A DNA stretch of 64,000 nt from positions 391 to 64,390 of the forward strand of contig JAZDKK010000062.1 of NCBI GenBank assembly GCA_043803015.1. The letters are read 5' to 3'. Below the pieces are notes generated by a model. That model searched no databases. It was given only the letters and a program-made list of their open reading frames with translations, and had not been told where the DNA came from. Numbering within the stretch: the stretch's first letter is position 1; each line of letters opens with the position of its first letter. The DNA is from Verrucomicrobiota bacterium. GTDB taxonomy: Bacteria; Verrucomicrobiota; Kiritimatiellia; CAIQIC01; JAGNIJ01. This document shows, in pieces, positions 10,659 to 42,539 of the stretch. A program made the position numbers and the translations under genes.

Positions 10659-10733
10659 GGCGAGGCAGGCAAGATGCCCATGCGGAGAGCCTCCGGTCCC
10701 CGCGTCCTCCCTCTTTGGGGCTGATCACGGGAA

Positions 10734-16613: not shown

Positions 16614-19502
16614 ATGCTCAGACCGAAACACTTGCTGGTGCTCGGCTTTCTCGTCTTCTCATCCTGCCTCGTTTTTGCTGAGCCACCACCCCTCACCCCG
16701 GATCTCCGCGCCGTGCCCGGCGAGCAGGCCACGCCCTGGCTCAGGTACCAGAACCCCGCGGCGACCAGCGTGATGGCAGCCGGATCCTGGGACGGCTGGG
16801 CCGGCCGGTACCCGATGGATAAGTCGAACGGGGTCTGGGTCCTCGACGCCCGCGTCTTCGGCGCCGCGTTCGGCCAGCACGAGTTCAAGTTCCTGCCCAA
16901 CAACGACTGGGAGGCCGGCCCGAACCGCCCGATCTACATCAACGGTGAGGGCGAGCTGGAGCGGCCATCGGACCTCATCTTCAGCGCGGCCATCGAGGCG
17001 CCGAACGAGATCGTCGTCTGGTTGCGGCGCGGCGTGTCCGCGAATGCGCCGCTGAAGGCCCGCCTCGTGCCGGAGACGCCGATCAAGGAATTGCGCTTCT
17101 CCTCGGGCCTGGAGGCCGGCGCCCTGCAGGGCTGCTTCATCGCGGGCGGGCCCGCCCGCATCGCTACGCGAAGCGTTGCGGGCGGGCTGTTCACGGTCGT
17201 GTTCGATGAGAAGACCTACGGCCTGAACCTCGAACCGGCGGCGGACCGCGTCGTCGCCGCGGGCAACTTCAACGGCTGGGACTCCAGCGGGGGCAACGGG
17301 CGCTGGCTCCTCAAGGACGACAACAACGACGGCATTTGGGAGCTGACTACCCAGCTGGCGGGGCTCCGCCAGCCGGCCGACGAGAAGGACCTTCTCTTCA
17401 AGTTCGTGATCAATGGGAACCGATGGCTGCCGCCTCCTCCGGGTGCGCTCAATGCCACGGCGGACGGCAAGGGCAACGTCAACCTGAAGATCGACCCGCA
17501 GTCCGGCGGCGGGACCAGCCTGAAGGTCGTCACCGAGAACCCCCTGGTCCTGTCACAGTCGTATGTCATTGTGCTGGAAGGTGTTGCGGATCGCCCGATC
17601 TGGTCCACGGTCACGCCCGGCGAGATCATGGAGGACCTGAAGTCCGCCAAGCAGCTGGGCGCGATCCTCGACCGGGAGCACCGCTGCACGACGTACCGGC
17701 TTTTCGCCCCGCGCGCGCGGAGCGTCCACCTCTGCCTCTTCGACACGCCGCAGTACGAGGTCCGCCAGCCCGAGTTCCGCCGCGTGGAGCCGGTCGAGCG
17801 CTACCCGCTGTGGAAGGACGAGCAGGACGGCGTCTGGGAGATCTCGCTCCTGGGGCTGGACGTCGGGAAGTACTACTCGTTCAACGTGGACGGCCCGGCG
17901 GGAAACGGCGAGGGCTTTGAACCCCTCGCGCAGATCGGAGATCCGTACGCGCGGGCCGCCGCCCACTCCCAGAACAACACCATCGTGGTGGACCCCGACG
18001 AAACCAACGCGTGGTTCGGCGGTTGGTCGGACGATTCGTACGTGGCGGTCGCACCCCAGGATGCGGTCATCTACGAGATGCACATCCGGGACCTGACGGT
18101 CCATCCGTCTGCCGGCGTGCCGCCGGAGGATGCCGGCAAGTACGAGGGCCTGATCGCCACGGAAGCCGCGGGCACGGGCCTCGGCTACCTCAAGGACCTC
18201 GGCGTCACGACCCTCGAGATCATGCCGATGGCGGAGTTCTCGAACGGCGAGGACGAGTACAACTGGGGCTACGCGCCGGTGTTCTATTTCGCGCCCGAGG
18301 CGTCCTACGCCAAGCGCCCCCTGAAGGGCTCGCAATACTTTGAATTCAAACGACTTGTGAACGAGCTCCACCGGATGGGCTTCGGCGTAATCCTCGACGT
18401 GGTCTTCAACCACGTCGGGTCGCCGAACATCTTCCACCTGATGGACAAGAAGTACTTCTTCCGGCTGAACCCGGATTTCTCGTACAGCAATTTCAGCGGG
18501 TGCGGGAACGATTTCAAGACCGAGTCCCCGATGGCGCGCCGGCTGATCGTGGACAACATCGTGTACTGGATGAAGGAGTTCCACGTGGACGGGTTCCGCT
18601 TCGACCTGGCGGAGCTGATCGACATGGACACGATGCTCGCGCTCCGCGACGCGGCGCGCGCGGTGAACACGAACGTGATCCTGGTCTCCGAGCCGTGGAG
18701 TTTCCGGGGCGAGAACAAGCACCAGCTCAAGGGCACCGGGTGGTCCGCGTGGAACAACGACTTCCGCTACGCGGCGAAGGACTTCGTCATGGGCCGACGC
18801 AACCGGGAGTGGCTGCAGAAGAACATCTTCGGGTCCGTGGACACGTGGGCATCCGACCCGCTGCAGCCGGTCAACTACCTCGAGAGCCACGACGACATGG
18901 CCCTGGCGGACGAGCTCTGCACGCGGCCGGACCGCGACGGGCGGAGCCTCCAGGACATGGACGTGGCCGTGAACCGGCTGGCCGCGACGGTGCTGTTCAC
19001 GTCGCTGGGCATCCCGATGATCTCGGAGGGGCAGGAGTTCATCCGGAGCAAGTGGGGATTGGGGAACACGTACAACAAGGGCGACGAGGTGAACGCCATC
19101 CGCTGGACGGACCGCGAACGGCCGAAGGCGGCCGAGGCCCTGGCGTACTACAAGGGCCTGATCCAGCTCCGCCGGAGCCCGCAGGGCGCAGCGTTCCGTG
19201 TGGCGAAGCGTCCGCCGGCAAGCTATTACCAATGGATCCTGCCGCCCGATGCCCAGACGCTGGCCTACATCGTGAACGCGCCGCGCATCCACGACGGCAG
19301 CGGCTTCGTCGTCCTGCTGAACGCGAGCGGAACGACGTTTACCTTCACCGTTCCCCTGCCCGCCGGCCGCTGGCGTTTGATTGGCGACGGCGAGCGGATC
19401 GATCCGGCCGGCCTCCCGGACACGCCCGTCGCCGAAGGCCCGCAACAGATGACGATCCAGGTCCCCGGCCTCCGCGCGTTCATCCTGATGGACGGGTTCT
19501 AA
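16614..19502 (+). CDS. Pullulanase / glycogen-debranching type GH13 enzyme with N-terminal glycogen-binding (CBM48/AMPK-beta-like) modules
   Basis: GH13 conserved regions: VILDVVFNHVG, DGFRFDLAELID, LVSEPWS, NYLESHDD, plus YNWGYAPVFYFAPEASYA. I prefer the start at ATG 16614 (MLRPKHLLVLGFLVFSSCLVFA signal) over the track start at 16578. Confidence 0.88.
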   Translation: MLRPKHLLVLGFLVFSSCLVFAEPPPLTPDLRAVPGEQATPWLRYQNPAATSVMAAGSWDGWAGRYPMDKSNGVWVLDARVFGAAFGQHEFKFLPNNDWEAGPNRPIYINGEGELERPSDLIFSAAIEAPNEIVVWLRRGVSANAPLKARLVPETPIKELRFSSGLEAGALQGCFIAGGPARIATRSVAGGLFTVVFDEKTYGLNLEPAADRVVAAGNFNGWDSSGGNGRWLLKDDNNDGIWELTTQLAGLRQPADEKDLLFKFVINGNRWLPPPPGALNATADGKGNVNLKIDPQSGGGTSLKVVTENPLVLSQSYVIVLEGVADRPIWSTVTPGEIMEDLKSAKQLGAILDREHRCTTYRLFAPRARSVHLCLFDTPQYEVRQPEFRRVEPVERYPLWKDEQDGVWEISLLGLDVGKYYSFNVDGPAGNGEGFEPLAQIGDPYARAAAHSQNNTIVVDPDETNAWFGGWSDDSYVAVAPQDAVIYEMHIRDLTVHPSAGVPPEDAGKYEGLIATEAAGTGLGYLKDLGVTTLEIMPMAEFSNGEDEYNWGYAPVFYFAPEASYAKRPLKGSQYFEFKRLVNELHRMGFGVILDVVFNHVGSPNIFHLMDKKYFFRLNPDFSYSNFSGCGNDFKTESPMARRLIVDNIVYWMKEFHVDGFRFDLAELIDMDTMLALRDAARAVNTNVILVSEPWSFRGENKHQLKGTGWSAWNNDFRYAAKDFVMGRRNREWLQKNIFGSVDTWASDPLQPVNYLESHDDMALADELCTRPDRDGRSLQDMDVAVNRLAATVLFTSLGIPMISEGQEFIRSKWGLGNTYNKGDEVNAIRWTDRERPKAAEALAYYKGLIQLRRSPQGAAFRVAKRPPASYYQWILPPDAQTLAYIVNAPRIHDGSGFVVLLNASGTTFTFTVPLPAGRWRLIGDGERIDPAGLPDTPVAEGPQQMTIQVPGLRAFILMDGF

Positions 19503-20060: not shown

Positions 20061-20143
20061 ACCCACCCCTCCCGTCCCCTCCGGTGGAGGGGACCCCCCG
20101 ATTCCGTCCCCTCCTCTGGAGGGGTGCCGGAGGCGGGGTGGGT
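20061..20143 (+). repeat. REP/MITE-like element, copy C (83 bp, lacks the GTAG module)
   Basis: acccacccctcccgtcccctccggtggagggg ... cccctcctctggagggg ... ggggtgggt. Its last base overlaps the TGA stop (20145..20143) of the DUF11 gene. Confidence 0.8.
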
Positions 20144-21273
20144 CAGCGCATCCCCACCTTCACCCGGTACACGCGGCCGCCGTTGGGCGGCGGACCGCCC
20201 GTGGTGTTAACGCTCTCGTTGTCCAGGAAGACGTGGTTCGTCGGGTTCAGCGCGGTTTCGATCCACACGCCGTAGTTCGTGTTGGCGAACGCGGACCACG
20301 GCGCGTTGTTCGAGAGCCTCTGATCGGTGAAGTACATGGTGTACTTCCGGTTCGGCACGGTCCAGACCGTGACCTGGTGGTTCGACTGGCCCTGCGGCGT
20401 CACCACGCTCCGCACGCGGAAGACCGAGGTCGAGCTGGCCGGCTCCGTGCCGGAAACATACTCGAAGTAGTTGTTCGCGCCGTCGCCGTCGTAGTCGCCC
20501 GTCGGCGTGTTGGTCAGCGACCCTAGCTTGGTCCACTCCCAGCCGTCGCCCATGCCGTCCGTGTCCCAGTCGAAGGGGACCATGATGGTCGTGGTGTTCG
20601 TCGTGATGCTGTTGGTCTCGCCCTGCTGGTCGTTGGCGACGAAGACCACGAGGTTGGTCGTGTTCGTGGCGCTGGCCGGCGCCGTCCACGTGAAGTTCGT
20701 GCCGTCGAACGTGGAGCCCGAGGGCTTGGTGGGGTTGGTGAGGAGCACCGGGTCGCGGTTGTTGTCCGTCACCTCCACGACGAAACTCGTCGTGGCCCCG
20801 ACGGGCAGGACAAAGGGGCCCGGCGGGTTGAACGTGATCACCGGCGCGTGGTTGACCTGGAGCACCGTGGTCGTCGTCGCGGTGCGGTCGTTGCCCGTTT
20901 GCGTGTCGCCCGTGATGCTGACGTCGTTCGTGATGGTCCCGTCGAGGGTCGGCGAGACGACGATGGTGACGGCGGCCGTGGCCCCCTTGGACAGGTTGCC
21001 GAGGTTGCAGGTCACGATATCGGCCACCTGGCTGTACGTCCCCTGGCTGAGCGAGCACGACACGAAGTTCGCCGCGGCCGGCATGACGTCCGTGACGACC
21101 GCGTTCGTCACCGTGTCGGGGCCGACGTTCGTGACGGCGATGGCATAGGTCAGGTTCTTGCCAACCCTCACCGGGTCCGGGCTGTCCGCGACGCTGATCA
21201 GCGCGTCCGACGTGGCCGGGCACACCCCTCGCGAGAGGAGCACCAGCATGGCTATGGAAAGGAGTTTCTTCAT
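20143..21273 (-). CDS. Secreted DUF11 (conserved repeat domain) protein with an Ig-like middle region and a C-terminal domain ending RVYRVKVGMR
   Basis: I prefer the start at ATG 21273 (MKKLLSIAMLVLLSRGVCPA signal). DUF11 signature: VGKNLTYAIAVTNVGPDTVTNAVVTDVMP. Its ATG overlaps the TGA of the upstream giant gene (ATGA at 21273..21270). Confidence 0.8.
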   Translation of the reverse strand: MKKLLSIAMLVLLSRGVCPATSDALISVADSPDPVRVGKNLTYAIAVTNVGPDTVTNAVVTDVMPAAANFVSCSLSQGTYSQVADIVTCNLGNLSKGATAAVTIVVSPTLDGTITNDVSITGDTQTGNDRTATTTTVLQVNHAPVITFNPPGPFVLPVGATTSFVVEVTDNNRDPVLLTNPTKPSGSTFDGTNFTWTAPASATNTTNLVVFVANDQQGETNSITTNTTTIMVPFDWDTDGMGDGWEWTKLGSLTNTPTGDYDGDGANNYFEYVSGTEPASSTSVFRVRSVVTPQGQSNHQVTVWTVPNRKYTMYFTDQRLSNNAPWSAFANTNYGVWIETALNPTNHVFLDNESVNTTGGPPPNGGRVYRVKVGMR

Positions 21274-24200
21274 GGTCCCTTCTCCCATCGCACGTAGTCA
21301 ATGTAGAAGGCATGGTCGATGGTCGGGTCCGTCCCCATGAACGGGCTTCTGATGTTCGACAGGGCCACGCCGGCAAAGTTGGTGATGGGGATCACCTTGT
21401 GCTGCCACTCGGCCGCGCCGAGACTGTTGGTTGTCGGGTTGTACCACGCCCCGATGGCCGTGTTCGTGACGCCGCCGGCGACGCTCTGGATCTCCACCTT
21501 GGTGTACCCGGAAGACTTGAGGAAGAACTTCAGGTACCCGTTCCCGTAGTCCGACAGGTCAACCGTTGTGTTGTTCGTGTAGAAGACCCCCCACCCTGAC
21601 CAGTTGACGCAGTACGACCTGAAGCAGCGCGCGCCCTCGGGCGGACTCGGGTCGCCAGGGTACTGGCCGTTGAAGCTGTTCCCCTGCTTGAGAACCACGT
21701 CGTCGAAGTCGGCCACGCTCACACCGGCGGAGCCGGGCTTCTGGACGACCAGCTCGAGCCGGACGTAGGCCGAGTTGACCGTCGCCGTGGTGTCCGGGAT
21801 CGAGCACTGGGTCCAGCCCTGCGCAGCGGTTGTGACGCGCACGGCCGACGTCACGCTCGACAGCAGCGTGTCCCACCCGTCGTAGAAGCTCATGCGCACG
21901 AACGCTTCGGAGCCGGAGACCCACCCCTGGCCGGAGGGCTGGCGGACCCAGGCCTCGGCCTGGAAGACGTCCTCGCCGACGGCCGGGTGCTCCTGGTACG
22001 GCGCGCACCAGACCGACCCGGTTTCGGTCCCGGTCTTGTTCCTGAGGCCGGCGGCGCCGGTGTAGAGTGCGGCCGTCGTGCACTGCGCCGTGGCGCTGCC
22101 GCCGGCCGTGGCCGGCTTCCAGAACCCGGCGTTCGGGAACGTGCCGTTCGCGGTGCTCTGCTCGAACCCCCCGTCGTTGGTCGCCGGGCTCACGTGGCTG
22201 AAGTACGCGACGTCCTTCCACACGTAAATGTCGCTGCCCTGCGGGATGCCCTCGTCCGAGTAGAACATCTTGCTTTCGATTCCGGGCGTGACGTTCGTGG
22301 AGCGCGTCCAGCTGACATCATCCACCAGGTACGTGGCGCCGGTCGTCGAGCTGATCGAGAACAGGCCGTACACTTGCGAAAGGTTGACGCCGCCGAAGTT
22401 CGTGATCGGCAGCTGGAACTCCTGCCAGACACCGGCCGTGGACGCCACCGAGTTGGTCCGCGAGGTGCCCTGCGGCCCTTCCAGCTGGACCTTGAGCGCG
22501 TTGGTGCTCTTGAGCCAGAACCGGAGGAAGCCGTTGGAGTAGGCCGCCATGTCGAGCGTGTTGGTCTTGAAGACGCCCCACTTCGACCACGTCCCGGAGG
22601 AGGCCCGGTAGCAGGTGCTGCCTTCGGGCGGCGTGTCGCCCAGGTACGCCGGCTCGAACGTCGCCGCCCCGCCGGACCACGTCAGGTTCGTGCAGCCCAC
22701 CGGGATGCCGAAGTCGCGGTACACGCGGTACACGCCGCGGACCCAGCGGATGTGGTCCACGTAGAACGTGTTGAGCCCGTACACGGTGAAGGCGCCCAGG
22801 CCCATGATCTTCGAGAGGTTGACGACGCTGCTGAACGTGGTGATCGGGATTGAGATTTCCTTCCACTGGTTGGTGGTGGACGGCACGGTCGTATTCTTCT
22901 TGGTGCCCTGCGGCCCTTCCAGCTCGACATAGACGGTGGTGGAGCTCTTGAGCCAGAACTTCAGGAACCCGTCCGCGTACGCCGAGAGGTCCACCGTCGT
23001 ATTCGTGTAGAAGACGCCGTAGCCAATGGAGCTGGCCGTCGTGGCGTAGATGCATTTCACCCCTTCGGGTGTCGTGATGCCGGTGTAGTTGCCGTCGACG
23101 CTGCCCGAGCCCCATATCCACAAGTTGCAGCCCAGCGGCAGGCCCAGGTCGGAATACGCCGTGAACTCCTCGCCCGGCGGCGGGGTCACGATGATGGTCG
23201 TTTCGGGTCCGACCGGCAAGCCCTGCGCGTTGAACCGGAAGGTGTCGTCCAGGCCGACGCGCTCCAGGAGCGGGTTCAAGGATCCGGTCGGATGCATGTA
23301 CGACACCCACAGGAAGTTGTTGCCGGAGGGCATGGCGCCGGGGAGCGTCACCGGGAACCAGCCGGTGCCGGTCTTGTTCGTGACGGTGAAGACCTGGCTC
23401 ACGTAGCTCGTGCCGACGTACGGGTCCTCGAGCCCGATGGTCAAGGCCTCCGGCACCTGGTCGAGGTTCTCCCACTCCACGGGGACCTGCACGGTCTGGC
23501 CGGAGTGCATATTGGTCGGGAACGCGGGGTTCTCGACCATCAGCCGCGGCGCGAAGTAGACCGCCGTGTTGGAGTACGAGTGCGCGTCGCCGCCGCGCAG
23601 GTAGAAGTACCACTCGTACTGCGCCCCGAGCGTCGAGCCCTCGTGCTCCCAGCTGCCCGGGTCGTAGTCGGGCACGAACGGCCAGAACGCGTTGGTCGGG
23701 ATGTACACGCCGGTGACCGCCTGGGTCACCAAGCCGTACTGCTCGTCCGCGACGCGGAAGTTGTCCCACTCCGTGTAGCCCTGGTAGTAGGAGCTCAGGA
23801 AGCCGACCGACGCGGAGGTCAAGTTGGTCACCTCGATCGGCTCGTCCATGAACACCACGCGGTCGTTCACGAAGAGGTCGCTCCGGAGGTACGGGTCGCC
23901 GTCGCGGACATTGAGCCGCACGTGCTGCCAGGCTCCGGTCGAGACCAGGTTGGTGTAGTAGAGGTACACGTTCGTGTCGTTCCAGCCGCAGAGTTGGGGA
24001 TTCACGTAGAGCACGCGGCCCGCGTACACGATGCCGCCGTTCGTGGCGCCGTTCATGAAGCGCGTGGTGTACTCGATCGTCACGTTGCGCCCCGTCACGT
24101 TGAGCCCGTCGCGCGTGATGTACGCGTAGCCGCCCGTGCTGACGACCGTCGCGCGCAGGGCGCCGTTGCTCACGGTCCACGAGATGTTCGGGTTCGCCGC

Positions 24201-27200
24201 GATCGTCCAGCCGGAGTAGTTGCCGTCGTTGAAGTTGTCCTCGCTGGTGAGGCCTTCCCTGTCCTTGAGCCCGTACTCGCCGATGTAGTTGCTGCTCCCC
24301 GCGTTCCAGGCCACCCACAGGTCCCACTCCCGGCCGGCGAACACCTTGTTGCCCACCCCGATGATCTGGAGGCCGATGCCCGGGATGCTGACGAACTTGC
24401 CCGGCCCGTCATTGATGGACGTGTAGAACCCGGCGTGCGCGCCCCACGGGTAGCCGGCATCCCACGGGTAATTGAAGATCGCCCAGTACAGGTTGGTGCC
24501 GGTCATGATCCCGTCGGTAGGCAGGCTGAAGAACACGTTCGTGCTCCCGGTTCCGCCGAGGACCCAGGCCATCCCCTGGGCTACGACGAAGTCGTAGTTC
24601 CCCCCGGCCGGGGTCTGGCACTTCAGCTGGACCAGCACGCGGTGCGCCTCGCCGCGCGTCCACTCGAACGCCCGCCGCGCGAGCTGGCGGCACGCGTTGG
24701 TCAGCTGGCCCTGCGTGTCCACCGGGAAGTTGAAGCAGAAGGCCTTGGACGGCGACCAGACGTCCGGCCCGGTCAGGTTGCAGAGCGCGGCCGGGATGCT
24801 GCTCGACCCGTTGTCCGCCGTGACCACCGCGGTGGCGCTCGTTACGGTCGTCCAGTCGGTGCCCGTACCGGCCGCCGTCAGCTGGGCGCCGGGCGCGTAG
24901 TCCAGCGCCACGTAGTGGTCGCTCGTCCCGACCGTCAATCGGTTCAGGCCCGAGATCGTGGTGACCGCCGGCGCGACGCCGAAGATGCTCTCGATCCGGC
25001 CGAGGTCGTCCTGGCCGGCCTCATTCTTGCGGGCGATGCCGCCGTCCGTGGCGATTACGTTGTAGGTGCCGCCGTGGACCCACGTGATCACGTTCGACAC
25101 CTCGGTGTCGCTCATGACGAACGTGCTCGGCAGGATCACGGTCCCGTAGAACGTGCGCAGGTAGCCCCAGTCGAGGTTCAGCGGGTGGCCGAGCGTGCCG
25201 CCGCCCGGGTTCTCCGCCGACCAGTAGCTGTACTCGTCGTCGTCGATGAAGAAGTAGCCTTTCTGCGGCTCCCAGATGCCGAGCTGCCCGGCCGTGGTGC
25301 CGATGGCGATGCGCCCCGACGTGTACGGGAAGCTCGCGGGCGAGCCGAAGGAGCCGACGTTCTTTCCGTCGAGGTACACGGTGTAGTTCGTGCCCTGCGC
25401 ATCCACCTTGAGGTTGTACCACGTGTTCTCGGCGGGCTGGTTCGTCTTCGAGAACTCGTAGATCCAGCCCTGCGTCACGTTGTTGGTGTCCACGCGCACG
25501 ATGTACTTCAGCCGCCAGAACCCGTAGAAGTTCTGGATCAGGACCTTCACGAAGTTGTCGCGGTTCTGGTAGCGGAGGTAGAGCTCCGCGTTGTTCAGGT
25601 ACGGCCCCTGGCGGTTGTAGCGGATGTTGGCCTCGACGGCGTAGTTGGTCCAGGCCGGGTCGCCGGCGGCCAGGATGTTGTCGTCGTTGCCGATGCGCCA
25701 GGCGCGGAGCGCCCCGCCTTCCACCGTCCAGTTCGCCGCGCCGGCGGCGCGCGTCCAGCCCGTGCCCAGCCCGCCGTTGAACGGCTCGAACAGCAGGACG
25801 CCGCTGGCCACGATCCGGACGTTGAGGTTGTCCAGATACCAGCCCCGGTAGCTGTTGTAGAGGCCGTCCACGCTGTCGAAGAAGAACTTGATCTTGATCT
25901 GGCGGCCGACAAACGGGCTCAGGTCGCAGCTCTGCATGGTCCACTGCTTGTTCGGGCCGGACACCTGGAGCACCTGCGTCCAGTTGGTGCCGTCGGTCGA
26001 GGCATAGACCAGCTTCTTGTCCCACGAGATGCCGGTGTCTTCCGTCTCGTACCAGCTTTGGAAGGAGAGCGTGGCGCTCTCGGCGGTCGTGAGATCGATC
26101 CACGGCGTGACGAGCGCGCCGGAGTTGCGGGCGCCGGTGTTGTAGTTCGACCCGTTGTTGTACGCCCAGCTGTGCGTCGGGCCGGCGTAAAGGTCACCCG
26201 CCTGGTGCCAGAGCCCCGCGGCGCTCCAGCCGTTGGTCCCCGCCTCCACGGCGTCGGAGAAGACGGACATGCCCGCGCTGCTGACCGTGGTGATCTTGAC
26301 GTCGTCCACGTACCAGCCCTCGAACTGGTTCGCGAGGCCGTCCACGGTGTCGAAGAAGAAGCGGAGCTTGATGCGCTGGCCGGAGTAGGCGCCCAGGTCG
26401 AGCGCCTGCGCGGTCCACTGCTGGTTGGACCCCGACACCTGGCCGACCTGCGCCCAGTTCGTGCCGTCCGCGGAGACGTACACGAGCTTGCGGTCCCAGG
26501 TCGTCCCGGTGTCCTCGGTCCGATACCAGCTCTTGAACGCCAGCGTGGCGCGCGATATGCCGGTGAGGTCGATCCAGCGGGAGACGAGCGACCCGGAACT
26601 GCGGACGCCCGTGTTGTAGTTCGAGCCGTTGTTGTAGACCCAGCTCTTCGTCCCGCTTGCCGCCCGGTTCGTCGCCAGCCGCCACAGGCCGTCGCCCACC
26701 CAGTTCGTGGTCGACTCCATGGTGTCCGCGAAGAGCTCCACGGGGGTCCCGCTGAGGGCGGCGACCTTGACGTCGTCCACGTACCAGCCCTTGAAGGTGT
26801 TGTAGAGGGCGTCCATGGTGTCGAAGAGGAACCGCAGCTTGATGCGCTGGCCGGCGTACGTGCCCAGATCGTACGAGGCGGTCGTCCACTGCTTGTTGGG
26901 CCCCGAGACCTGCAGGAGCTGCGTCCAGTTCGTGCCGTCCACGGAGGCGTAGACCAGCTTCCGGTCCCAGCTCGTCCCCGTGTCCTCGGTCTCGTACCAG
27001 CTCTTGAAGCTGAGCGTGGCGCCCGCGACGGCCGTCAGGTCGATCCAACGCGTTTCCAGCGTGCCGCTGTTCCGCACGCCGGTGTTGTAGTTGGTGCCGT
27101 TGTTGTACGCCCAGCTGTGCGTGGGGCTGGACGAGAGATCGGTCGCCAGGTGCCACAGGCCGCTCGTCGTCCAGTTCGTGAGCGTGCCTTCCAGGTCGTC

Positions 27201-30200
27201 GTTGAACAGGTACACCGTCCCGCCCGTGCTCACGCCGGTGGAGACGACGATGTTGTCAAAGCTGATGTCGAGGTCGTTGCCGTTGCTGTAGCCCAGGCTC
27301 TCCAGCCAGTCGCAGACCTGGTTGACGCGGTCCAGGTGGCCGGGGAACTGCTGTTCGGTCTTGGTGGAGCGGAACAGGGCCACGCGCGTCGGGAAGGCGT
27401 CGTTCCGGGACATCGGGGAGTGCTGCCAGTAGAGGTATTCGTAGAGCTCTTCCCACTCGACCGCGATGTTGGTGGAGATGCCCTTCGTCATCGACGTGGG
27501 CAGCGGCGAGGCCGGGCTGATGCCCCACTTGAGCTGCGTGGACTGCGAAGCCGCCGTCGCCACCGCGTTGCTCGCCGGGTCCTCCAGCCAGGTCTGCCAC
27601 GTGTACGACCCGCCGTCCGGCGTCGAGACATAGTTCGTGTCGCTCTGGTTCGCGTCGGGGATCCACATCCAGAAGACCTGCGAGCCGGCGCCCGTGACGT
27701 TCGTGGCGATCGTTTGGTAGACCTGCTTGCCGTTGAGCCCGCCCACGAGGGCGATCTTCAGGGTGAGGTTGGTCTTGCCGAGCGTGTCGTACTTGATCGT
27801 GATCGAGTAGTTCTTGTCGCCGAAAGGATGGATCACCGCCGGGGCGTCGGCGAGCTGGCAGATCAGGTTGTTGGTGCCGGCCGTGTACGCCAGGAACATC
27901 TCCTGGCCGTCCGGCGCGAGCGTGAGCTGGATCGTGCCGTCGCTGTTGGTCTCCAGGACCCGGCCCTGCTCGTACGCGCGGATGTTCCGGCCGAGCAACA
28001 GGGGGCTGGCGAGGGTGAAGGTCTGCGGATCGCCCCCGGTCTGGTTGGCCGCGAAGCGGTCGTACATGTAGTTCTTCACCTGCCACAGCGTGGCGCCGTT
28101 CGTGCAGGTGCGGTACTCCGCCAGGCACAGGAACGCGTTCGTGCCGAGCACCTGCAGCGGCGGCTGGACGCCGAAGTAGTCGCGGACGACGCTGCCGAAG
28201 TAGTCGTAGCGCCACTGCCACGGGAGGACGTCCATGTCCCAGTCCTCGTTGCCGTCGGGCAGCATGTCGCCGGAGGAGAACAGGAAGATGGCCGCCTTGG
28301 CCGTGCCGTGGTTCTTCACCACCACGGCCGGCGATTTGGCGTAGTGGTCCACGTACAGCGACCCATCGCCCGAGCCGGTGATCCGGATAATCCTCCGACC
28401 CTTGATCGCGTTGGAAGGCGCCACGGCATCCACTTTGTACTGCACCCAGGCGTTGCCCGGCGTGTTGGTGGTCAGGCGCGGGCTCTCGTTGGTGGAGATG
28501 ATCTGGCCGTTGTTGTCATACCACTCGATGGAGAGGTAGCCCTGCTTGCCGTTGCGCAGGGGGTCGTCGTTGTTGTTCCGCAGGTACGTGCTGAAGACGT
28601 AGCGGCCGAAGGGCGCCACCTGGAAATCCTGCCAGATCCCCGCGTCGCCCCACATCTGCAGCATGTTGGTCCCGTCCATGGGGAACCAGTGCTGGATCGT
28701 CATGTTGTTCGTGCTCCAGGCAAACCAGTTCGGGACGCCCTTGTCGCTGTCCTCGAACCCCTTGTTCCGGCGCACGTCCATCTTCGCCCACACGGTGCCG
28801 TCGAGGACCCGGACCTCGTCGTTGTACTTCCAGACCTGCGGCGTGCAGCGGTAGCCGTTGGTGAGGACGCCGGGTGCGTTGCTGAACACCACCGTGATCG
28901 GCACCGTGTTGCTGGCGATGTAGTTGCCCGTGCGGGGAGCCACTTCGAACCCGCCGGCGTCGCTGGCGTCAATGCCAAACAGCGCCGCCAGCTCGTTCGT
29001 GTAGCCGGGGAGAGGATTGCCGTTCTGGTTCTGCATGCCCGGCAGGTCCGCGCTGGCGAGGATGTGGATTCCCTTCGTGAGGACGTTTTCGCGGAGGAAC
29101 TGCAGGACGCCCTTGCCGGTCCCCGGCACCTCGGTGTCGACGCGCATGTTCCGGGGCAGGATGATCATCTTGTAGTTGGTATAGACGCCGGAGGCCAGGT
29201 CCTCCAGGTTCACGAAATTCGGCTCGTAGCCCAGGCGCTCCAGCGCGCCGGAGATCTGCTGCATCTCGCACTCGTAGCGGTTGAACTGGGAGTCGTTCGC
29301 CGCGGTCCACAGGAACGCCACGTCCGGTTTCGGATCCTTGGAGCCGGCGAGCAGGTTGTGGATGTTGATCTGGTCCATGAGCATGTAGGTGTCGCGCGAG
29401 ACCCAGAAGGCGGCCTTCACGTTGCGGTCGGCGTAGAGAACGCCGAAGCCCTTCTCGCGGTCCGTGATGTACGGGCGGTCATGCCAGGCGAAGATGTGCG
29501 TGCCGATCGCGCCCGCCTCGAGGCTCTCCCACAGCGCGTTGCGGATCAGGGGCCCCTGCCGGTACTCGTTCATGCCCGGCCACATGGTTTCCGAGCTGGT
29601 GAACCCGGTCTCGGTGTACAGGACCGGCATGCCCTGTGGGTCGTTGGTCGAGATCGTGACCTTCTTCGTGTAGGAAATGCCCCAGTGGCCGTTCTGCGAC
29701 TCGTGGCCCAGGATGGACCACGGGTAGTTGTTCACGGAGAAGAAGCTCAGCGGCGCGTTGGTGGCGGCGCACGCGCGCGTGATCTTGCCGCGGTCCTCGG
29801 CGTGGTACCGCCAGTCTTCCTCGCCCCACTGCATGCCGACGGTGGAGTAGGAGAGCAGGTGGTTCGTATCCGCCGCGCGGGCCGCGGCGGCGCCCGCCGC
29901 CGTGTAGCCGGCAATGGACTCCTCGCGCCACTGCACCATGTCCGCCCACTCCGCCCCCTCTGATCCGTACTCCCGGTACTGCTCGACGAACACGATGTTG
30001 GAGAACGCAGGATACGACGTGCCCCACTGGGCGTTCACGCTGGAGATGGTCCCGTACTTGACTTCACACCAGTTCCGGAACGCCTGCTCGCACTGCGGGT
30101 CGTAGCCGTCCAGCAGGCCGCTCCACAGGCCGAGGTAGCCGTACTCGTTGCCGACGATCCACGCCACGATGGCTTTGCTGTTCTTGTAGCGGCCGCACAC

Positions 30201-30764
30201 GTTGCTGAAGAATTCCGCGTACTGCGCGCGGGCCTGCGGGTGCTCGTAGTTGATGATGTCGGAAGACCACCGCCCCCCATGCCAGATTCCGCCCGAGTCG
30301 TAGTCCGGCGGGTGCATGGTGTACCACGCGTCCGGGAACCAGCCCGGCGGCCACTGGTAGCCGATCAGGGCGAAGATGCGGATGCCGCGCTGCTCGCAGG
30401 CCTGGATCAGGTAGTCGTAGTTCGCCCAGCTCCACTGGTTGTCGCCGGTCTCCTCGATGTGCTGCCACACGAAGTCGACGCGGATCGAGTTCGCACCCAT
30501 CTTCACCATCTCGTCCAGGTCGTAGTCGACCTGGCCGAAGCTCTGCCACACGCCCAGCGGCCGGTTCCACGTCTGGTACGCGATGCCGTGCGGCACCCAC
30601 GGCTTGCCGGAGCCCGCGTCCAAGAAGTAGCCGTCCTTCATCTTGATGAAGCCGTCGAACGCGCGAGCACTCGCGCTCCAACCTACGAGCAGCCCCACCG
30701 CAAGACCCACCGCGGCTCGGACCGCCCGTCCCCGGCGCCTCGTTTCAGACAGTGATTTTTGCAT
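21270..30764 (-). CDS. Giant secreted multidomain glycoside hydrolase (3164 aa). Domains: N-terminal GH42-like clan GH-A barrel plus GH42M-like domain, CBM-like modules, 3 tandem ~157-aa jelly-roll repeats, DUF1080/LamG-like modules, and three C-terminal CBM-like modules
   Basis: I prefer the start at ATG 30764. GGGAGGAG lies 6 nt upstream, and the signal peptide is MQKSLSETRRRGRAVRAAVGLAVGLLVGWSASARA. GH42-like motifs: IVGNEYGYLG and FRNWCEVKYGTISSVNAQWGTSY. The C-terminal module recurs three times (GVFYTNTTVDLSAYADGFLKFWLKSS.., GVFKTNTLDMAAYSNGFLRFWLKST.., GVFYTNNTTVDLSDYGNGYLKFFLKSS..). The track ORF 21270..30929 carries a 55-aa N-terminal extension that I reject. Confidence 0.88.
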   Translation of the reverse strand: MQKSLSETRRRGRAVRAAVGLAVGLLVGWSASARAFDGFIKMKDGYFLDAGSGKPWVPHGIAYQTWNRPLGVWQSFGQVDYDLDEMVKMGANSIRVDFVWQHIEETGDNQWSWANYDYLIQACEQRGIRIFALIGYQWPPGWFPDAWYTMHPPDYDSGGIWHGGRWSSDIINYEHPQARAQYAEFFSNVCGRYKNSKAIVAWIVGNEYGYLGLWSGLLDGYDPQCEQAFRNWCEVKYGTISSVNAQWGTSYPAFSNIVFVEQYREYGSEGAEWADMVQWREESIAGYTAAGAAAARAADTNHLLSYSTVGMQWGEEDWRYHAEDRGKITRACAATNAPLSFFSVNNYPWSILGHESQNGHWGISYTKKVTISTNDPQGMPVLYTETGFTSSETMWPGMNEYRQGPLIRNALWESLEAGAIGTHIFAWHDRPYITDREKGFGVLYADRNVKAAFWVSRDTYMLMDQINIHNLLAGSKDPKPDVAFLWTAANDSQFNRYECEMQQISGALERLGYEPNFVNLEDLASGVYTNYKMIILPRNMRVDTEVPGTGKGVLQFLRENVLTKGIHILASADLPGMQNQNGNPLPGYTNELAALFGIDASDAGGFEVAPRTGNYIASNTVPITVVFSNAPGVLTNGYRCTPQVWKYNDEVRVLDGTVWAKMDVRRNKGFEDSDKGVPNWFAWSTNNMTIQHWFPMDGTNMLQMWGDAGIWQDFQVAPFGRYVFSTYLRNNNDDPLRNGKQGYLSIEWYDNNGQIISTNESPRLTTNTPGNAWVQYKVDAVAPSNAIKGRRIIRITGSGDGSLYVDHYAKSPAVVVKNHGTAKAAIFLFSSGDMLPDGNEDWDMDVLPWQWRYDYFGSVVRDYFGVQPPLQVLGTNAFLCLAEYRTCTNGATLWQVKNYMYDRFAANQTGGDPQTFTLASPLLLGRNIRAYEQGRVLETNSDGTIQLTLAPDGQEMFLAYTAGTNNLICQLADAPAVIHPFGDKNYSITIKYDTLGKTNLTLKIALVGGLNGKQVYQTIATNVTGAGSQVFWMWIPDANQSDTNYVSTPDGGSYTWQTWLEDPASNAVATAASQSTQLKWGISPASPLPTSMTKGISTNIAVEWEELYEYLYWQHSPMSRNDAFPTRVALFRSTKTEQQFPGHLDRVNQVCDWLESLGYSNGNDLDISFDNIVVSTGVSTGGTVYLFNDDLEGTLTNWTTSGLWHLATDLSSSPTHSWAYNNGTNYNTGVRNSGTLETRWIDLTAVAGATLSFKSWYETEDTGTSWDRKLVYASVDGTNWTQLLQVSGPNKQWTTASYDLGTYAGQRIKLRFLFDTMDALYNTFKGWYVDDVKVAALSGTPVELFADTMESTTNWVGDGLWRLATNRAASGTKSWVYNNGSNYNTGVRSSGSLVSRWIDLTGISRATLAFKSWYRTEDTGTTWDRKLVYVSADGTNWAQVGQVSGSNQQWTAQALDLGAYSGQRIKLRFFFDTVDGLANQFEGWYVDDVKITTVSSAGMSVFSDAVEAGTNGWSAAGLWHQAGDLYAGPTHSWAYNNGSNYNTGARNSGALVTPWIDLTTAESATLSFQSWYETEDTGISWDKKLVYASTDGTNWTQVLQVSGPNKQWTMQSCDLSPFVGRQIKIKFFFDSVDGLYNSYRGWYLDNLNVRIVASGVLLFEPFNGGLGTGWTRAAGAANWTVEGGALRAWRIGNDDNILAAGDPAWTNYAVEANIRYNRQGPYLNNAELYLRYQNRDNFVKVLIQNFYGFWRLKYIVRVDTNNVTQGWIYEFSKTNQPAENTWYNLKVDAQGTNYTVYLDGKNVGSFGSPASFPYTSGRIAIGTTAGQLGIWEPQKGYFFIDDDEYSYWSAENPGGGTLGHPLNLDWGYLRTFYGTVILPSTFVMSDTEVSNVITWVHGGTYNVIATDGGIARKNEAGQDDLGRIESIFGVAPAVTTISGLNRLTVGTSDHYVALDYAPGAQLTAAGTGTDWTTVTSATAVVTADNGSSSIPAALCNLTGPDVWSPSKAFCFNFPVDTQGQLTNACRQLARRAFEWTRGEAHRVLVQLKCQTPAGGNYDFVVAQGMAWVLGGTGSTNVFFSLPTDGIMTGTNLYWAIFNYPWDAGYPWGAHAGFYTSINDGPGKFVSIPGIGLQIIGVGNKVFAGREWDLWVAWNAGSSNYIGEYGLKDREGLTSEDNFNDGNYSGWTIAANPNISWTVSNGALRATVVSTGGYAYITRDGLNVTGRNVTIEYTTRFMNGATNGGIVYAGRVLYVNPQLCGWNDTNVYLYYTNLVSTGAWQHVRLNVRDGDPYLRSDLFVNDRVVFMDEPIEVTNLTSASVGFLSSYYQGYTEWDNFRVADEQYGLVTQAVTGVYIPTNAFWPFVPDYDPGSWEHEGSTLGAQYEWYFYLRGGDAHSYSNTAVYFAPRLMVENPAFPTNMHSGQTVQVPVEWENLDQVPEALTIGLEDPYVGTSYVSQVFTVTNKTGTGWFPVTLPGAMPSGNNFLWVSYMHPTGSLNPLLERVGLDDTFRFNAQGLPVGPETTIIVTPPPGEEFTAYSDLGLPLGCNLWIWGSGSVDGNYTGITTPEGVKCIYATTASSIGYGVFYTNTTVDLSAYADGFLKFWLKSSTTVYVELEGPQGTKKNTTVPSTTNQWKEISIPITTFSSVVNLSKIMGLGAFTVYGLNTFYVDHIRWVRGVYRVYRDFGIPVGCTNLTWSGGAATFEPAYLGDTPPEGSTCYRASSGTWSKWGVFKTNTLDMAAYSNGFLRFWLKSTNALKVQLEGPQGTSRTNSVASTAGVWQEFQLPITNFGGVNLSQVYGLFSISSTTGATYLVDDVSWTRSTNVTPGIESKMFYSDEGIPQGSDIYVWKDVAYFSHVSPATNDGGFEQSTANGTFPNAGFWKPATAGGSATAQCTTAALYTGAAGLRNKTGTETGSVWCAPYQEHPAVGEDVFQAEAWVRQPSGQGWVSGSEAFVRMSFYDGWDTLLSSVTSAVRVTTAAQGWTQCSIPDTTATVNSAYVRLELVVQKPGSAGVSVADFDDVVLKQGNSFNGQYPGDPSPPEGARCFRSYCVNWSGWGVFYTNNTTVDLSDYGNGYLKFFLKSSGYTKVEIQSVAGGVTNTAIGAWYNPTTNSLGAAEWQHKVIPITNFAGVALSNIRSPFMGTDPTIDHAFYIDYVRWEKGP
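25805..27215 (-). repeat. Three tandem coding repeats of about 471-473 bp (about 157 aa) inside the giant gene
   Basis: The DNA block gacgtcgtccacgtaccagccc...gtgtcgaagaagaa..cttgatgcgctggcc recurs near 26770 and 26297, with a diverged copy near 25830. Protein units: LFNDDLEGTLTNWTTSGLWHLA...GWYVDDVKV, LFADTMESTTNWVGDGLWRLA...GWYVDDVKI, VFSDAVEAGTNGWSAAGLWHQA...GWYLDNLNV. Boundaries are approximate. Confidence 0.8.
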
Positions 30765-30863
30765 GGCCGGCTCCTCCCTCGCGTGCAGTTTCAGGACATC
30801 TAGGCTACGTCTCGTGCAGGCACCACGTTCGAACGAACTTGGCAGGACTATCACCCGCCGCTC

Positions 30864-31162
30864 GGGACCGTTCCCATCTTCACGCATTAAACACTTTGTT
30901 CCGTTTGAAGTCAATGCAAAACTGGTCACGTTCCCGGCCGTTTCCCAACCAAGGCCAGCCCGCCCAAAGAAATCGCCGCTTTCCTCAGCAAATAGCCCAT
31001 TTCACGAGCCAAACCGAATTCCCAACACCCCCCTCTGCACCCCCCAGATCGTGGCCGCCTAAGGCCCTGTGGCGGGACCGGTCCCCTCCATTCCATAATG
31101 ACAGAAATTACACTTGCGCCATTCTGGGACCGTGGTAGTATGAGAGGCGTGGGACCGTTCCC
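30864..31162. promoter_or_regulatory. Cluster of GGGACCG(T/G)TCCC near-palindromes in the 464-bp divergent intergenic region
   Basis: GGGACCGTTCCC at 30864..30875 and again at 31151..31162 (identical 12-mers). GGGACCGGTCCC at 31074..31085 is a perfect palindrome. A half-site GGGACCGTGG is at 31126..31135. The hairpin CCCGCGacggagCGCGGG is at about 31160..31177. Confidence 0.45.
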
Positions 31163-39073: not shown

Positions 39074-41020
39074 CTAGGAGTTTCTGGCCTCGCTTGACCG
39101 CCGCGCGCGTGCCTGCTTCTCGATCCACACCGAGAGTATGGCGATGTCGGAGGGGTTCACTCCGGAGATTCGCGAGGCCTGTCCCAGGTTCTCTGGCTGG
39201 ACCCGCTCCAACTTCTCGCGCGCCTCGAACCGGAGCGCGCGTATTTCGCCGAACTTCATGCCGGGCGGGATCCTGATGTTCTCCAGCTTCTCCGAACGCA
39301 GAACGTCCCTGTACTCCCGCTCAATGTAGCCTTCGTACTTGACGCTGATCTCGACCAGCTCGGCCACCTCCGGAGAAAGGTCGCGTCGCGCTCCCGGGAG
39401 AGTCTGATAGCTCATCTCCGGCCGTCGAAGGATCTGCGCCAGGGAGCACCCATCGGCGAACGTGCTCTTGAGCCGCGCCAGTTCTTTCTCGACGTCCGCG
39501 CCCACGCCCTCGACTTCGCGCAGTCGTTCTGCCGGCACGACGCCCAGCCTCCGGGCGTGACGGACCATTCGCAGGGCCGCATTGTCTTGCCGCAGGATCA
39601 GCCGCCGTTCAGCACGAGAGGTGAACATTCGGTAAGGCTCGTCCGTGCCCTTCGTGACCAGGTCGTCGATAAGAACGCCGATATAGGCTTCGTTCCTGCT
39701 CAGGACAAACGAGTCCTCTCCGCGGACCCTGAGCACGGCATTTGCGCCAGCCATAAATCCTTGGCCCGCAGCTTCTTCATAGCCCGTGGTGCCATTGATC
39801 TGCCCGGCGAAGAAGAGGTTGTCCACGAGCTTCGTCTCCAGGCTGTGGCGGAGTTGCGTTGGATCCGCGAAGTCGTATTCGATCGCGTAGCCGGGCCTGA
39901 CAAACACAGCTCGTTCAAGGCCTGGAATCGAGTGGATCATCTCCAGCTGCACGTCCTCTGGGAGGCTGTTGGATGTGCCATTGGGGTACACCTCGACCAG
40001 TTCACGCCCCTCCGGCTCGACGAAGATGTGGTGCGCCGAATGGTGTGGGAACTTGACGATCTTGTCCTCGATGGATGGACAGTACCGTACGCCGGTGCCT
40101 GTTATGACCCCTCCGTAGAGGGCACTCTTGTCCAAGTTGTCGGTTATGATCTGGTGGGTCCGTTCCGTGGTGTGCGTAAGGTAACAGGGGATCTGGCCGC
40201 TGCCGGGAGGCCACGGCCGGAGGGGGTCCGAGCCTTGTTCCACGTGGAACAATCCCTGGTCGGACTTCTGATTCGTGACCCCTGACTTCACGCCCTGTTC
40301 CACGTGGAACAACCGCCATTCCAGCCTTGCTGACGCCGAGAAGAACGGGGGTGGTTCCAACCCGGGCTGAATCTGCATGCTCCCGTACTCCACGCTATCC
40401 CTGTGGAGCCTGGGCGGCGTGCCTGTCTTCAATCGGCCCATGCGGAATCCGAGGTGCCTGAGCGACCGACTGAGCTCGTTGGATGCCTTCTCGCCAATAC
40501 GGCCGCCCTCAAAGCTCCGTTTTCCGATGTGAATCGTGCCGTTCAGGAAGGTGCCCGCTGCAATCACCACCGTTTTCCCCGCGATGGAGGAGCCATCGGC
40601 TGTCTTGACCCCTCTGAGCCGGCCGTTCTCAACCCATATTTCGGTGACCAGCGCTTCTATGACCTCCAGCCCCCGTGTTCGCTCGATTACGGCGATCATC
40701 CGCCTTGGGAAAGCGGCCTTGTCGCATTGAGCCCGGTGGGCCTGGACCGCCGGGCCCTTACGGGTGTTGAGAGTGCGGAACTGGATGCCGGTGTAGTCCG
40801 TGTTCCGAGCCATCTCGCCGCCCAAGGCGTCGAGCTCGAAAACGATGTGGGACTTCGCCATCCCGCCAACCGAAGGATTGCACGACATCCTCGCGATCGC
40901 ACTTCGGTCGATCGTTACGAGTGCCGTCTTCGCGCCCATCCTCGCAGCCGCCAGCGCCGCCTCGTAACCAGCATGTCCGCCCCCAACGACAATCACGTCG
41001 AATGGTAGACCTCTATGCAT
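39074..41020 (-). CDS. mnmG: tRNA uridine 5-carboxymethylaminomethyl modification enzyme MnmG (GidA), carrying an insertion of about 35 aa that contains two parS sites
   Basis: FAD motif [22 protein letters not shown]. Also [39 protein letters not shown] and [19 protein letters not shown]. The insertion is [35 protein letters not shown], just before the conserved QIPCYLTHT. Confidence 0.95.
40237..40252. other. parS centromere-like site (ParB-binding consensus), copy 1
   Basis: TGTTCCACGTGGAACA is a perfect 16-bp palindrome (18 bp including the flanking T/A). It matches the parS family consensus TGTTNCACGTGAAACA. Confidence 0.8.
40297..40312. other. parS centromere-like site, copy 2
   Basis: An identical TGTTCCACGTGGAACA lies exactly 60 bp (20 codons) from copy 1. 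Both are translated in frame as FHVEQ within mnmG. Confidence 0.8.
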
Positions 41021-41104: not shown

Positions 41105-42496
41105 TTACTTGCCGATACAGAATCGTGAGAAGATGCTGGCGAGCAGTTCCTCCTGGTAGACTCTTCCCGTAGCCGAGCCGACCGATTCGAGCGCTGATCG
41201 CAAACACTCTGCAGCCAGAACCGTATTGTCACCCGGCCCCTTCTCCAGGAGTTCGAGCGCCTTGCCGATCTCGCCGCCAGTTTCCGTCAGCAATTGGCGG
41301 TGCCGTTCGGAAATCACCGCATGCGGCGGGGCGGACAGGTCCACGCCGGACTCGAGCTTCAGCGACATCTCGCGCCGGACTTCATCAACACCCACCCCCT
41401 TCACCAGGCTCGTCTCCACCGCGGCGAATCCGGGAACGTCCTCGGCTTTCACGACCCTGCCCAAATCTGTCTTGTTGAGGACCACCACCGTTCGCTCGTC
41501 CCCGAGCGTCTTCAGTCGGTCACGGTCCTCGGCCTCCAGGGGAGCCGACGCGTCAACAACGTACAGGTGGAGGTCCGCTTTCTGCATGTGCGCCTTGGTC
41601 CGGCGGATGCCCTCCTGCTCGATTTCGGACTGCGCCTCTCTCAGCCCGGCGGTGTCCACCAGCCGGATCGGTATACCGTCCAGCACAAGCCCTTCCTCTA
41701 TCGTATCGCGCGTGGTACCAGGTAGATGTGAAACGATGACGCGGTCCTTACCCAGCAGGGCATTCATCAGGGTCGACTTGCCCACGTTGGGTCGTCCGGC
41801 GATGACCACGAGCGCCCCTTCCCGGATCAGATGCCCCTCGTCCCACGTTCCGAGCAGGCTGCCAACCTCGTCCCTGGCACTCGTCAATCGGGCTGCCAGC
41901 TCGGTCACCGTCGAGGAGGGAAGCTCGTCGTCGGGGAAGTCCAGGGTTGCCTCCAGGTCCGTCGCCACGGAAAGCAGGCCGTCGTAGATCACGTTGAAAC
42001 GGCGGCTCAGCCCGCCTTCGAGCTGCTCCACCGCGGCCGCCGCCGCGCGGTCCGACCGGGCTCGCACCAGGTCCAGTACGGCCTCGGCCTGCAGAAGGTC
42101 GATCCTTCCGTTCAGGAAGGCGCGCCGGGTGAACTCGCCGGGCTCGGCCATCCGCGCCCCCGACTCGAGCACGCGGCGCAGGATCCGCCGCGCGGCGAGC
42201 GTGCCGCCGTGGCCCTGGATCTCCACAACATCCTCGCACGTGTAGCTGTGCGGGGCCCGCATGATCAGCAGCAGCACCTCGTCCACGTCGCCGCCGTCGC
42301 CCGTGATGCGCCCGTGCAGGACCACGTGCGAGGACCGCTCGGACGGCCGCGGGGGGGGGCCGGAGAAAACCTTGTCCGCGACCCGGAGGCTGTCCGGGCC
42401 GGATATCCTCACGATCGAAACGCCGGCCTCGCCGGGCGCGGTCGCGATCGCTGTAATGGTGTCGTCCTGGCAGCTCACCTGCGTCCTCCCACCCAT
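41105..42496 (-). CDS. mnmE: tRNA modification GTPase MnmE (TrmE)
   Basis: DTITAIATAPGEAGVSIVRISG, G1 box GRPNVGKSTLMN, DTAGLR, and the C-terminal CIGK tetrapeptide. I prefer the start at ATG 42496 because a perfect TATAAT box lies inside the longer track ORF (start 42538). Confidence 0.92.
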   Translation of the reverse strand: MGGRTQVSCQDDTITAIATAPGEAGVSIVRISGPDSLRVADKVFSGPPPRPSERSSHVVLHGRITGDGGDVDEVLLLIMRAPHSYTCEDVVEIQGHGGTLAARRILRRVLESGARMAEPGEFTRRAFLNGRIDLLQAEAVLDLVRARSDRAAAAAVEQLEGGLSRRFNVIYDGLLSVATDLEATLDFPDDELPSSTVTELAARLTSARDEVGSLLGTWDEGHLIREGALVVIAGRPNVGKSTLMNALLGKDRVIVSHLPGTTRDTIEEGLVLDGIPIRLVDTAGLREAQSEIEQEGIRRTKAHMQKADLHLYVVDASAPLEAEDRDRLKTLGDERTVVVLNKTDLGRVVKAEDVPGFAAVETSLVKGVGVDEVRREMSLKLESGVDLSAPPHAVISERHRQLLTETGGEIGKALELLEKGPGDNTVLAAECLRSALESVGSATGRVYQEELLASIFSRFCIGK

Positions 42497-42508
42497 GTCG
42501 GGCCGCGC

Positions 42509-42539
42509 ATTATATACCGTGCGCCATCCTGCATGCAAA
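42509..42539 (-). promoter_or_regulatory. Putative sigma-70-type promoter of mnmE
   Basis: On the minus strand: TTTGCA (42539..42534), then TATATAAT with a perfect TATAAT at 42514..42509. Only 12 nt separate the -10 box from ATG 42496, which implies a very short leader. Confidence 0.4.

Follow-up and report, generated by a model that had tools for sequence, protein, structure and literature searches.

The mnmG locus and its two palindromes

The stretch of DNA analysed here (called the window throughout) comprises 64,000 nucleotides of a contig from a Verrucomicrobiota bacterium of the Kiritimatiellia (JAZDKK010000062.1, positions 391 to 64,390), and its minus strand carries an intact mnmG (gidA) gene (39074..41020, 648 amino acids) whose product has all MnmG domains and the invariant cysteines Cys47 and Cys279. 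Within this open reading frame (ORF) lie two perfect copies of TGTTCCACGTGGAACA, at 40236-40251 and 40296-40311, exactly 60 bp apart from start to start and with a 44-nt spacer between them. The sequence is a perfect 16-bp palindrome that fits the chromosomal parS motif (TGTTNCACGTGAAACA / TGTTCCACGTGGAACA). It is identical to parS2 and parS3 of Pseudomonas aeruginosa, which are bound by ParB (PMC4368675), and the same 16 bp also constitute the parS of P. putida, so that the match to a ParB-binding site proposed in an earlier note on this DNA is to sites validated by experiment. That note, made from the letters of the window alone, had placed the pair at 40237-40312; both copies and the 60-bp spacing were confirmed, but the true sites lie one base to the left. 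It had also described the copies as being read in frame, as indeed they are: copy 1, the gene-proximal one (40296..40311), is read as (L237)FHVEQ242 and copy 2 (40236..40251) as (L257)FHVEQ262, giving LFHVEQ at L237-Q242 and L257-Q262 of the minus-strand ORF (the sites themselves are assigned to neither strand). The spacer (40252..40295, minus strand) codes for G243-G256.

No third perfect copy of TGTTCCACGTGGAACA was found elsewhere in the window. When up to three mismatches were allowed there were four matches against 0.28 expected per 64 kb, a number that none of 100 shuffled sequences reached, and with two of these matches perfect a chance origin of the pair was rejected. The other two are degenerate 16-mers at 18741-18756 and 22753-22768, with two and three mismatches, inside a pullulanase-like gene and a giant ORF of 3219 amino acids, respectively, and are probably chance matches. 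The half-site GTTCCAC occurs 16 times in the window against 9.5 expected, which is no real enrichment because four of the 16 belong to the two full sites. An Rfam scan of the window gave zero matches to RNA families.

The host protein and its expanded loop

The host protein is a full-length MnmG. It matches the Pfam GIDA family (E=5e-154), which contains the flavin adenine dinucleotide (FAD) domain, and both C-terminal MnmG domains, the helical GIDA_C_1st and SAM_GIDA_C, and it is 100% identical to MFH0954031.1, annotated at NCBI as MnmG of a Verrucomicrobiota metagenome-assembled genome (MAG). Comparison by phmmer with the solved MnmG structures 2ZXH and 3CES gave E values of about 1e-177, so that FAD domain, helical domains, cysteine pair and fold are all those of MnmG. 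The two catalytic-type cysteines, C47 and C279, are invariant.

Both sites lie in a part of the protein that is peculiar to the lineage. The stretch from GTPPR to C(Y/W)xT(H/Y)T measures 74 amino acids in the window MnmG compared with 36 in most non-verrucomicrobial MnmGs, an insertion of about 38 amino acids, which bears out the earlier note's estimate of about 35 just before PCY(I/L)THT. The phmmer alignment to the solved structures, including that of Aquifex, breaks at query residues 229-269, and from this break and the loop length the lineage-specific expansion can be placed at about residues 229-268 (40217..40336, minus strand), just N-terminal of the conserved RPW...PCYLTHT. An AlphaFold2 model built with 44 homologs was confident overall and had a mean predicted local distance difference test score (pLDDT) of 89 and a predicted template modelling score (pTM) of 0.91. 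In this model the first FHVEQ copy ends a predicted helix (residues 229-242), and pLDDT falls below 50 in a single internal segment, residues 241-259, between the two motifs. The loop is thus predicted to be a tolerated, mostly unstructured expansion of an otherwise intact enzyme.

Conservation of the sites among relatives

Two sets of sequences were used to follow the sites outside the window. The first consisted of the 120 closest MnmG proteins (64-71% identity; those that are named come from Kiritimatiellia or Verrucomicrobiota), and in all 120 the parS-encoding peptide occurs in this same loop, in two copies in 104 of them and in one copy in the remaining 16. The copies in these proteins correspond to sites 30-147 bp apart, with spacers that are unrelated in sequence, and among relatives overall the spacing ranges from 27 to 156 bp, so that neither the sequence nor the length of the spacer is conserved. 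The second set consisted of the DNA of 164 mnmG loci, taken from metagenomes as well as reference genomes, in which parS was defined by at most one mismatch. Taking the phylum of each genome locus from its record title, 27 of the 28 loci titled Verrucomicrobiota have a site inside mnmG, and these include Kiritimatiellia, Pontiella, Verrucomicrobiia, Akkermansia, Opitutaceae, Chthoniobacterales and 'Victivallales'. Among about 40 loci from other phyla there are one or two, namely a Clostridia MAG (L054) and a bin labelled Omnitrophota (L017).

In the 164-locus set 118 sites were counted in 166 kb of mnmG as against nine in 996 kb of flanking DNA (the flanks being taken from loci with an embedded site), and four of those nine are no more than 62 bp away from the stop codon of mnmG. 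These counts bear on the suggestion that the 76-bp unit arose by chance insertion, in frame, of a small palindromic element, mobile or repetitive and similar to a miniature inverted-repeat transposable element (MITE) or a repetitive extragenic palindromic (REP) sequence, with parS-like terminal inverted repeats. Such an element would account for the two 17-nt arms of the paired sites, which are perfectly complementary and 44 nt apart, and for the heptanucleotide tandem arrays in the spacers of some relatives. It is nevertheless very improbable, as there is no further copy in the 64-kb window, the roughly 1 Mb of flanks holds just the nine parS-like sites, and throughout the phylum the sites keep to one loop of one gene, with unrelated spacers between them. 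A dispersed repeat of the MITE or REP type was therefore rejected for want of dispersed copies in the window and flanks.

The number of copies varies with the lineage: one in most Verrucomicrobiia, Opitutaceae and Akkermansia muciniphila, two in most Kiritimatiellia and three in two metagenomic loci. One of the latter (L110) has its three copies as a tandem 39-bp repeat, FHVEQSSPRTPEM x3, at residues 265-296 of MnmG, and the other (L129) has them at residues 263-352 in a loop of 146 amino acids, all three being read as CSTWN. In three Verrucomicrobiia loci (L019, L097 and L113) the site is in a loop of canonical length (37 amino acids), which means that the insertion is not needed to host parS. 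An A. muciniphila MAG (L032) has a second site 31 bp past the stop codon in addition to that in mnmG. In six loci of an Akkermansia sp.-like clade (L052, L137, L138, L139, L151 and L157) only a decayed form of the loop site is left, read as FRMEQ or FRMKQ, but an intact parS, read as MFHVEH, is present in the C-terminal helical domain of mnmG at about residue 548, a pattern that looks like relocation of the site within the gene. All of these except L139 also have a site with one mismatch about 5.2 kb downstream. The uncultured Clostridia MAG carries its parS (TGTTACACGTGGAACA, at about 10680-10695, read as LLHVEQ) in the same MnmG loop without the insertion, and has parA-parB about 1-2.7 kb downstream; here the same permissive loop may have acquired a parS independently.

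In some Kiritimatiellia the spacers are built from tandem arrays of heptanucleotides that together form an inverted repeat (L003, 10701-10821; L028, 10714-10787; and the proteins P0104, P0017 and P0101). That of L003 reads (ATTGCCA)x4.9 followed by (AAATTGG)x4.3, and its whole cassette has 57-nt arms with 77% complementarity and a single-strand fold with z = -7.8. Read in frame, the arrays give peptides of the IADCGLR or IGNWKLE type, and a periodicity of seven amino acids was seen in 14 of 27 long spacers but not in that of the window.

Selection on the DNA sequence

Conservation of an in-frame site might reflect selection on either the nucleotides or the peptide, and FHVEQ might be a functional MnmG motif, for example one contacting tRNA or MnmE, with the parS match as a by-product. 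Codon usage was examined at a set of motifs defined by the peptide FHVE (98 motifs in 84 genes); as the sites were chosen by their peptide the codon test is not circular. The phenylalanine codon is TTC at 98 of 98 motifs compared with a frequency of 0.52 elsewhere in the same genes, histidine is CAC at 96 of 98 (0.46 elsewhere), valine is GTG at 96 of 98 (0.28 elsewhere) and glutamate is GAA at all 98 (0.55 elsewhere). The binomial tails for this bias range from 1e-26 to 1e-49, values which assume independent sites although the sequences are related. The constraint extends beyond the four residues, since the codon before FHVE is NTG in 87 of the 98 (TTG 40, ATG 39, CTG 6, GTG 2) and where it encodes leucine it is only TTG or CTG, the other four leucine codons being absent. 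The codon after FHVE is CAN in 95 of 98, and this explains why glutamine and histidine alternate at that position. In some lineages the identical 16-mer is read in a different frame, giving CSTWN (twice in L046 and three times in L129), or in the third frame, giving VPRGT (the second copy in L008 and L088).

These data effectively refute the functional peptide motif. It has in its favour that the peptide is present in every close homolog, that the first copy stands at the end of the predicted helix and that the neighbouring residues P269 and W270, shortly past the second site, do not vary in the Kiritimatiellia alignment, which means that at this edge of the expanded loop the protein is under constraint as well. 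Against this, synonymous codons are fixed, variation at the flanking residues stays within what NTG and CAN codons permit, the same DNA is read as CSTWN or VPRGT in some lineages, the number of copies ranges from one to three, the Akkermansia clade with a decayed loop site has its intact site in a different domain of MnmG, and the MnmGs of other phyla lack the motif altogether. We therefore regard the peptide as a hardly credible target of the selection. Variant sites differ by single uncompensated changes without covariation, which argues that an RNA stem is not what is kept either. Taken together, codon fixation at 98 sites, use of all three frames, enrichment within mnmG and presence in 120 of 120 homologs show, as far as comparison of the sequences goes, that the constraint in the MnmG loop acts on DNA and not on peptide. 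The suggestion that the coding sequence has accommodated parS is thereby borne out, with very strong DNA-level purifying selection across the phylum and a host loop that AlphaFold2 predicts to be disordered.

ParA, ParB and the origin context

The gene directly upstream of mnmG in the window is mnmE (trmE; 41105..42538, minus strand), and mnmE-mnmG is the sole neighbourhood common to the window and the four relatives whose gene maps were read. A mnmE-mnmG context is typical of origin regions, and the earlier note had taken the sites together with the adjacent mnmE to suggest that the window lies near the replication origin. The window itself contains no dnaA, has three matches to the DnaA box TTATCCACA (up to one mismatch) against 3.4 expected and no cluster of them, and shows no turning point of GC skew at mnmG; positions on long contigs gave no indication either way. 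Neither Pfam scans nor tblastn with Spo0J and Soj revealed parA, parB or rsmG in the 64-kb window, and among the loci with an embedded site tblastn found parAB within 10 kb of mnmG in that of the Clostridia MAG alone. The absence of these genes after mnmG had been correctly noted and described as atypical; it is atypical only in comparison with Firmicutes, Acidobacteriota and Gammaproteobacteria, and in Verrucomicrobiota it is the rule. The tblastn queries were B. subtilis Spo0J and Soj sequences, and they do detect parAB in loci of the former three groups; they gave no ParB or ParA in any verrucomicrobial locus fetched, no database-wide search for ParB having been made. The lone weak match to Spo0J (L087, 4139-4306) was rejected as ParB because it is the C-terminal domain of an MscS-like membrane protein. 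This protein of 427 amino acids (3086-4369), judged by eye to be of the MscS type, is encoded about 500 bp downstream of a Kiritimatiellia-type mnmG and ends in a ParB-N-like domain with 37% identity to Spo0J residues 44-98, in which AGHLRLQA replaces GERRxRA.

The lack of parA and parB, of dnaA, of clustered DnaA boxes and of a skew turning point, together with the invariance of P269 and W270, weighs against identification of the palindromes as parS. The absence of parB from the window and from the vicinity of mnmG would fit a reader other than ParB, which might be a Noc-type ParB-like paralog, a transcription factor recognizing a CACGTG core, or the mRNA itself if the repeats formed a hairpin tuning mnmG expression or translation. 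The location of the sites inside a transcribed gene would also suit such a role, as would the long inverted-repeat cassettes with strong predicted folding in some relatives (the 57-nt arms of L003, with its z of -7.8). We nevertheless consider another reader unlikely, because conservation covers all 16 bp rather than a core or a stem alone, because these 16 bp equal validated ParB sites, because the variants are single changes without compensation or covariation, and because in other phyla the same motif adjoins parAB or sits just outside mnmG. Furthermore, ParABS homologs have been reported in all 12 OMM12 genomes, including that of A. muciniphila YL44 (PMC10197239), so that a Par system is reported in a species with an embedded site (the MAG L032 being the A. 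muciniphila locus with a site in mnmG). The supplement of the Hi-C paper contains no parS coordinates for Akkermansia.

Elsewhere the window contains a very large ORF on the plus strand (75-7808, 2577 amino acids). The giant 3219-amino-acid ORF mentioned above occupies 21270-30929 on the minus strand and is followed by a gene for a DUF11-repeat protein (20143-21288).

Origin and possible role of the embedded sites

On balance, and resting on the sequence comparisons described above, it is probable that each of the two palindromes is a chromosomal parS centromere site, at which a ParB/Spo0J dimer would nucleate, and that both are situated in frame in a disordered and permissive surface loop of MnmG. 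The best reading of their distribution is that they are putative ParB loading sites which are ancient in Verrucomicrobiota and have been duplicated in Kiritimatiellia. By the current view of how ParABS works, which would be unchanged by these sites, a ParB dimer would bind each palindrome, close into a clamp dependent on cytidine triphosphate (CTP) and spread onto the flanking DNA, and ParA and the structural maintenance of chromosomes (SMC) complex would then use the resulting nucleoprotein complex in organising and segregating the origin region. A pair of sites at a distance of 60 bp would offer two independent loading points, and even the smallest spacing among relatives (27 bp) should leave room for two ParB dimers. 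The site probably goes back to an ancestor whose mnmG belonged to the usual origin-proximal mnmG-rsmG-parA-parB cluster, and mnmG would have retained it when parAB were later displaced. Duplication, as in Kiritimatiellia, and expansion of the spacer could then have been tolerated by the loop, because only 16 to 18 bp are constrained.

A bolder proposal, which we offer tentatively and hold as possible rather than probable, is that in Verrucomicrobiota the principal and perhaps the only centromere has been fixed within the reading frame of a housekeeping enzyme, uncoupled from parAB, ever since the phylum arose. In that case the MnmG loop would be a 'centromere cassette' in which copy number (one to three), reading frame, spacer length and position in the gene turn over and only the 16-18 bp stay fixed, the spacers of some lineages growing by means of inverted heptanucleotide arrays. 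If this is true, embedding in an indispensable gene would make the centromere hard to lose, and the site would mark the ParB-loading locus in any verrucomicrobial MAG.

We found no prior description in the literature of a parS conserved inside mnmG in Verrucomicrobiota. The locus is a natural case of double coding, with a protein-binding DNA palindrome and an enzyme loop specified by the same bases, and the frame switches, the codon fixation and the turnover of the spacer reveal which of the two constraints dominates. It can also serve as a marker, at the level of sequence, by which the likely ParB-loading locus is recognised in Verrucomicrobiota, among them A. muciniphila and the largely uncultured Kiritimatiellia, groups in which gene order does not reveal the centromere because parAB is not next to mnmG.

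Comparison with known systems

A close counterpart is found in P. aeruginosa, where segregation requires one of parS1-4 and no more than one, and where a coding location is predicted for nine of its ten parS sites and several are clustered (PMC4368675), so that intragenic parS is well precedented. The sites in the window share their 16-bp sequence with parS2 and parS3, and their coding location and clustering with P. aeruginosa parS sites in general. They differ in that both are in one loop of mnmG, that parAB is not nearby and that their position has been kept through deep divergence; in P. aeruginosa, parS1-4 lie about 10-20 kb from parAB, which come after gidA-gidB (PMC13438810). No report was found in the literature of P. 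aeruginosa parS sites being conserved in one gene across a phylum. Spreading of ParB has little effect on the expression of neighbouring genes (reviewed in PMC7022226).

Sites are found near mnmG in several other phyla. In five Firmicutes loci (L042, L069, L079, L083 and L132) a TGTTCCACGTGAAACA site lies 3.3-4 kb downstream of mnmG, and in Firmicutes, Acidobacteriota and Gammaproteobacteria loci generally parS-family palindromes adjoin parAB, downstream of mnmG-rsmG. In nine loci of Bacteroidota or Ignavibacteria type (L060, L065, L073, L078, L080, L135, L148, L150 and L156) parS is about 6-120 bp outside the mnmG ORF, either upstream or downstream, mostly as TGTTTCACGTGAAACA or TGTTCCACGTGAAACA variants (L073 having a GGAACA form), and there is no parAB within 10 kb. 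These flanking sites share with the embedded ones a linkage to mnmG in the absence of parAB but differ in being non-coding, and hence are under no double constraint. The linkage of parS to mnmG is therefore broad, and what Verrucomicrobiota have done is to carry the site inside the reading frame.

A parS within a gene is reportedly also present in Bacillus subtilis, where Lin and Grossman are said to have described one in 1998 inside the coding sequence of spo0J (parB). The likeness is that of a parS palindrome inside an ORF near the origin, and the difference is that the host gene there is parB itself, with a single copy (TGTTCCACGTGAAACA) and no loop insertion. Another cis element for chromosome maintenance that is tied to gidA/mnmG is oriCII of P. 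aeruginosa, which partially overlaps gidA and has its DnaA boxes upstream of the gene (PMC13438810). It differs from the embedded sites in that DnaA boxes in or near the promoter and 5' region are involved instead of parS, and in that it is not translated as a conserved in-frame cassette. By comparison with these systems the element in the window is itself a canonical parS, and what is new is its context, which is phylum-wide, in frame, variable in copy number and uncoupled from parAB.

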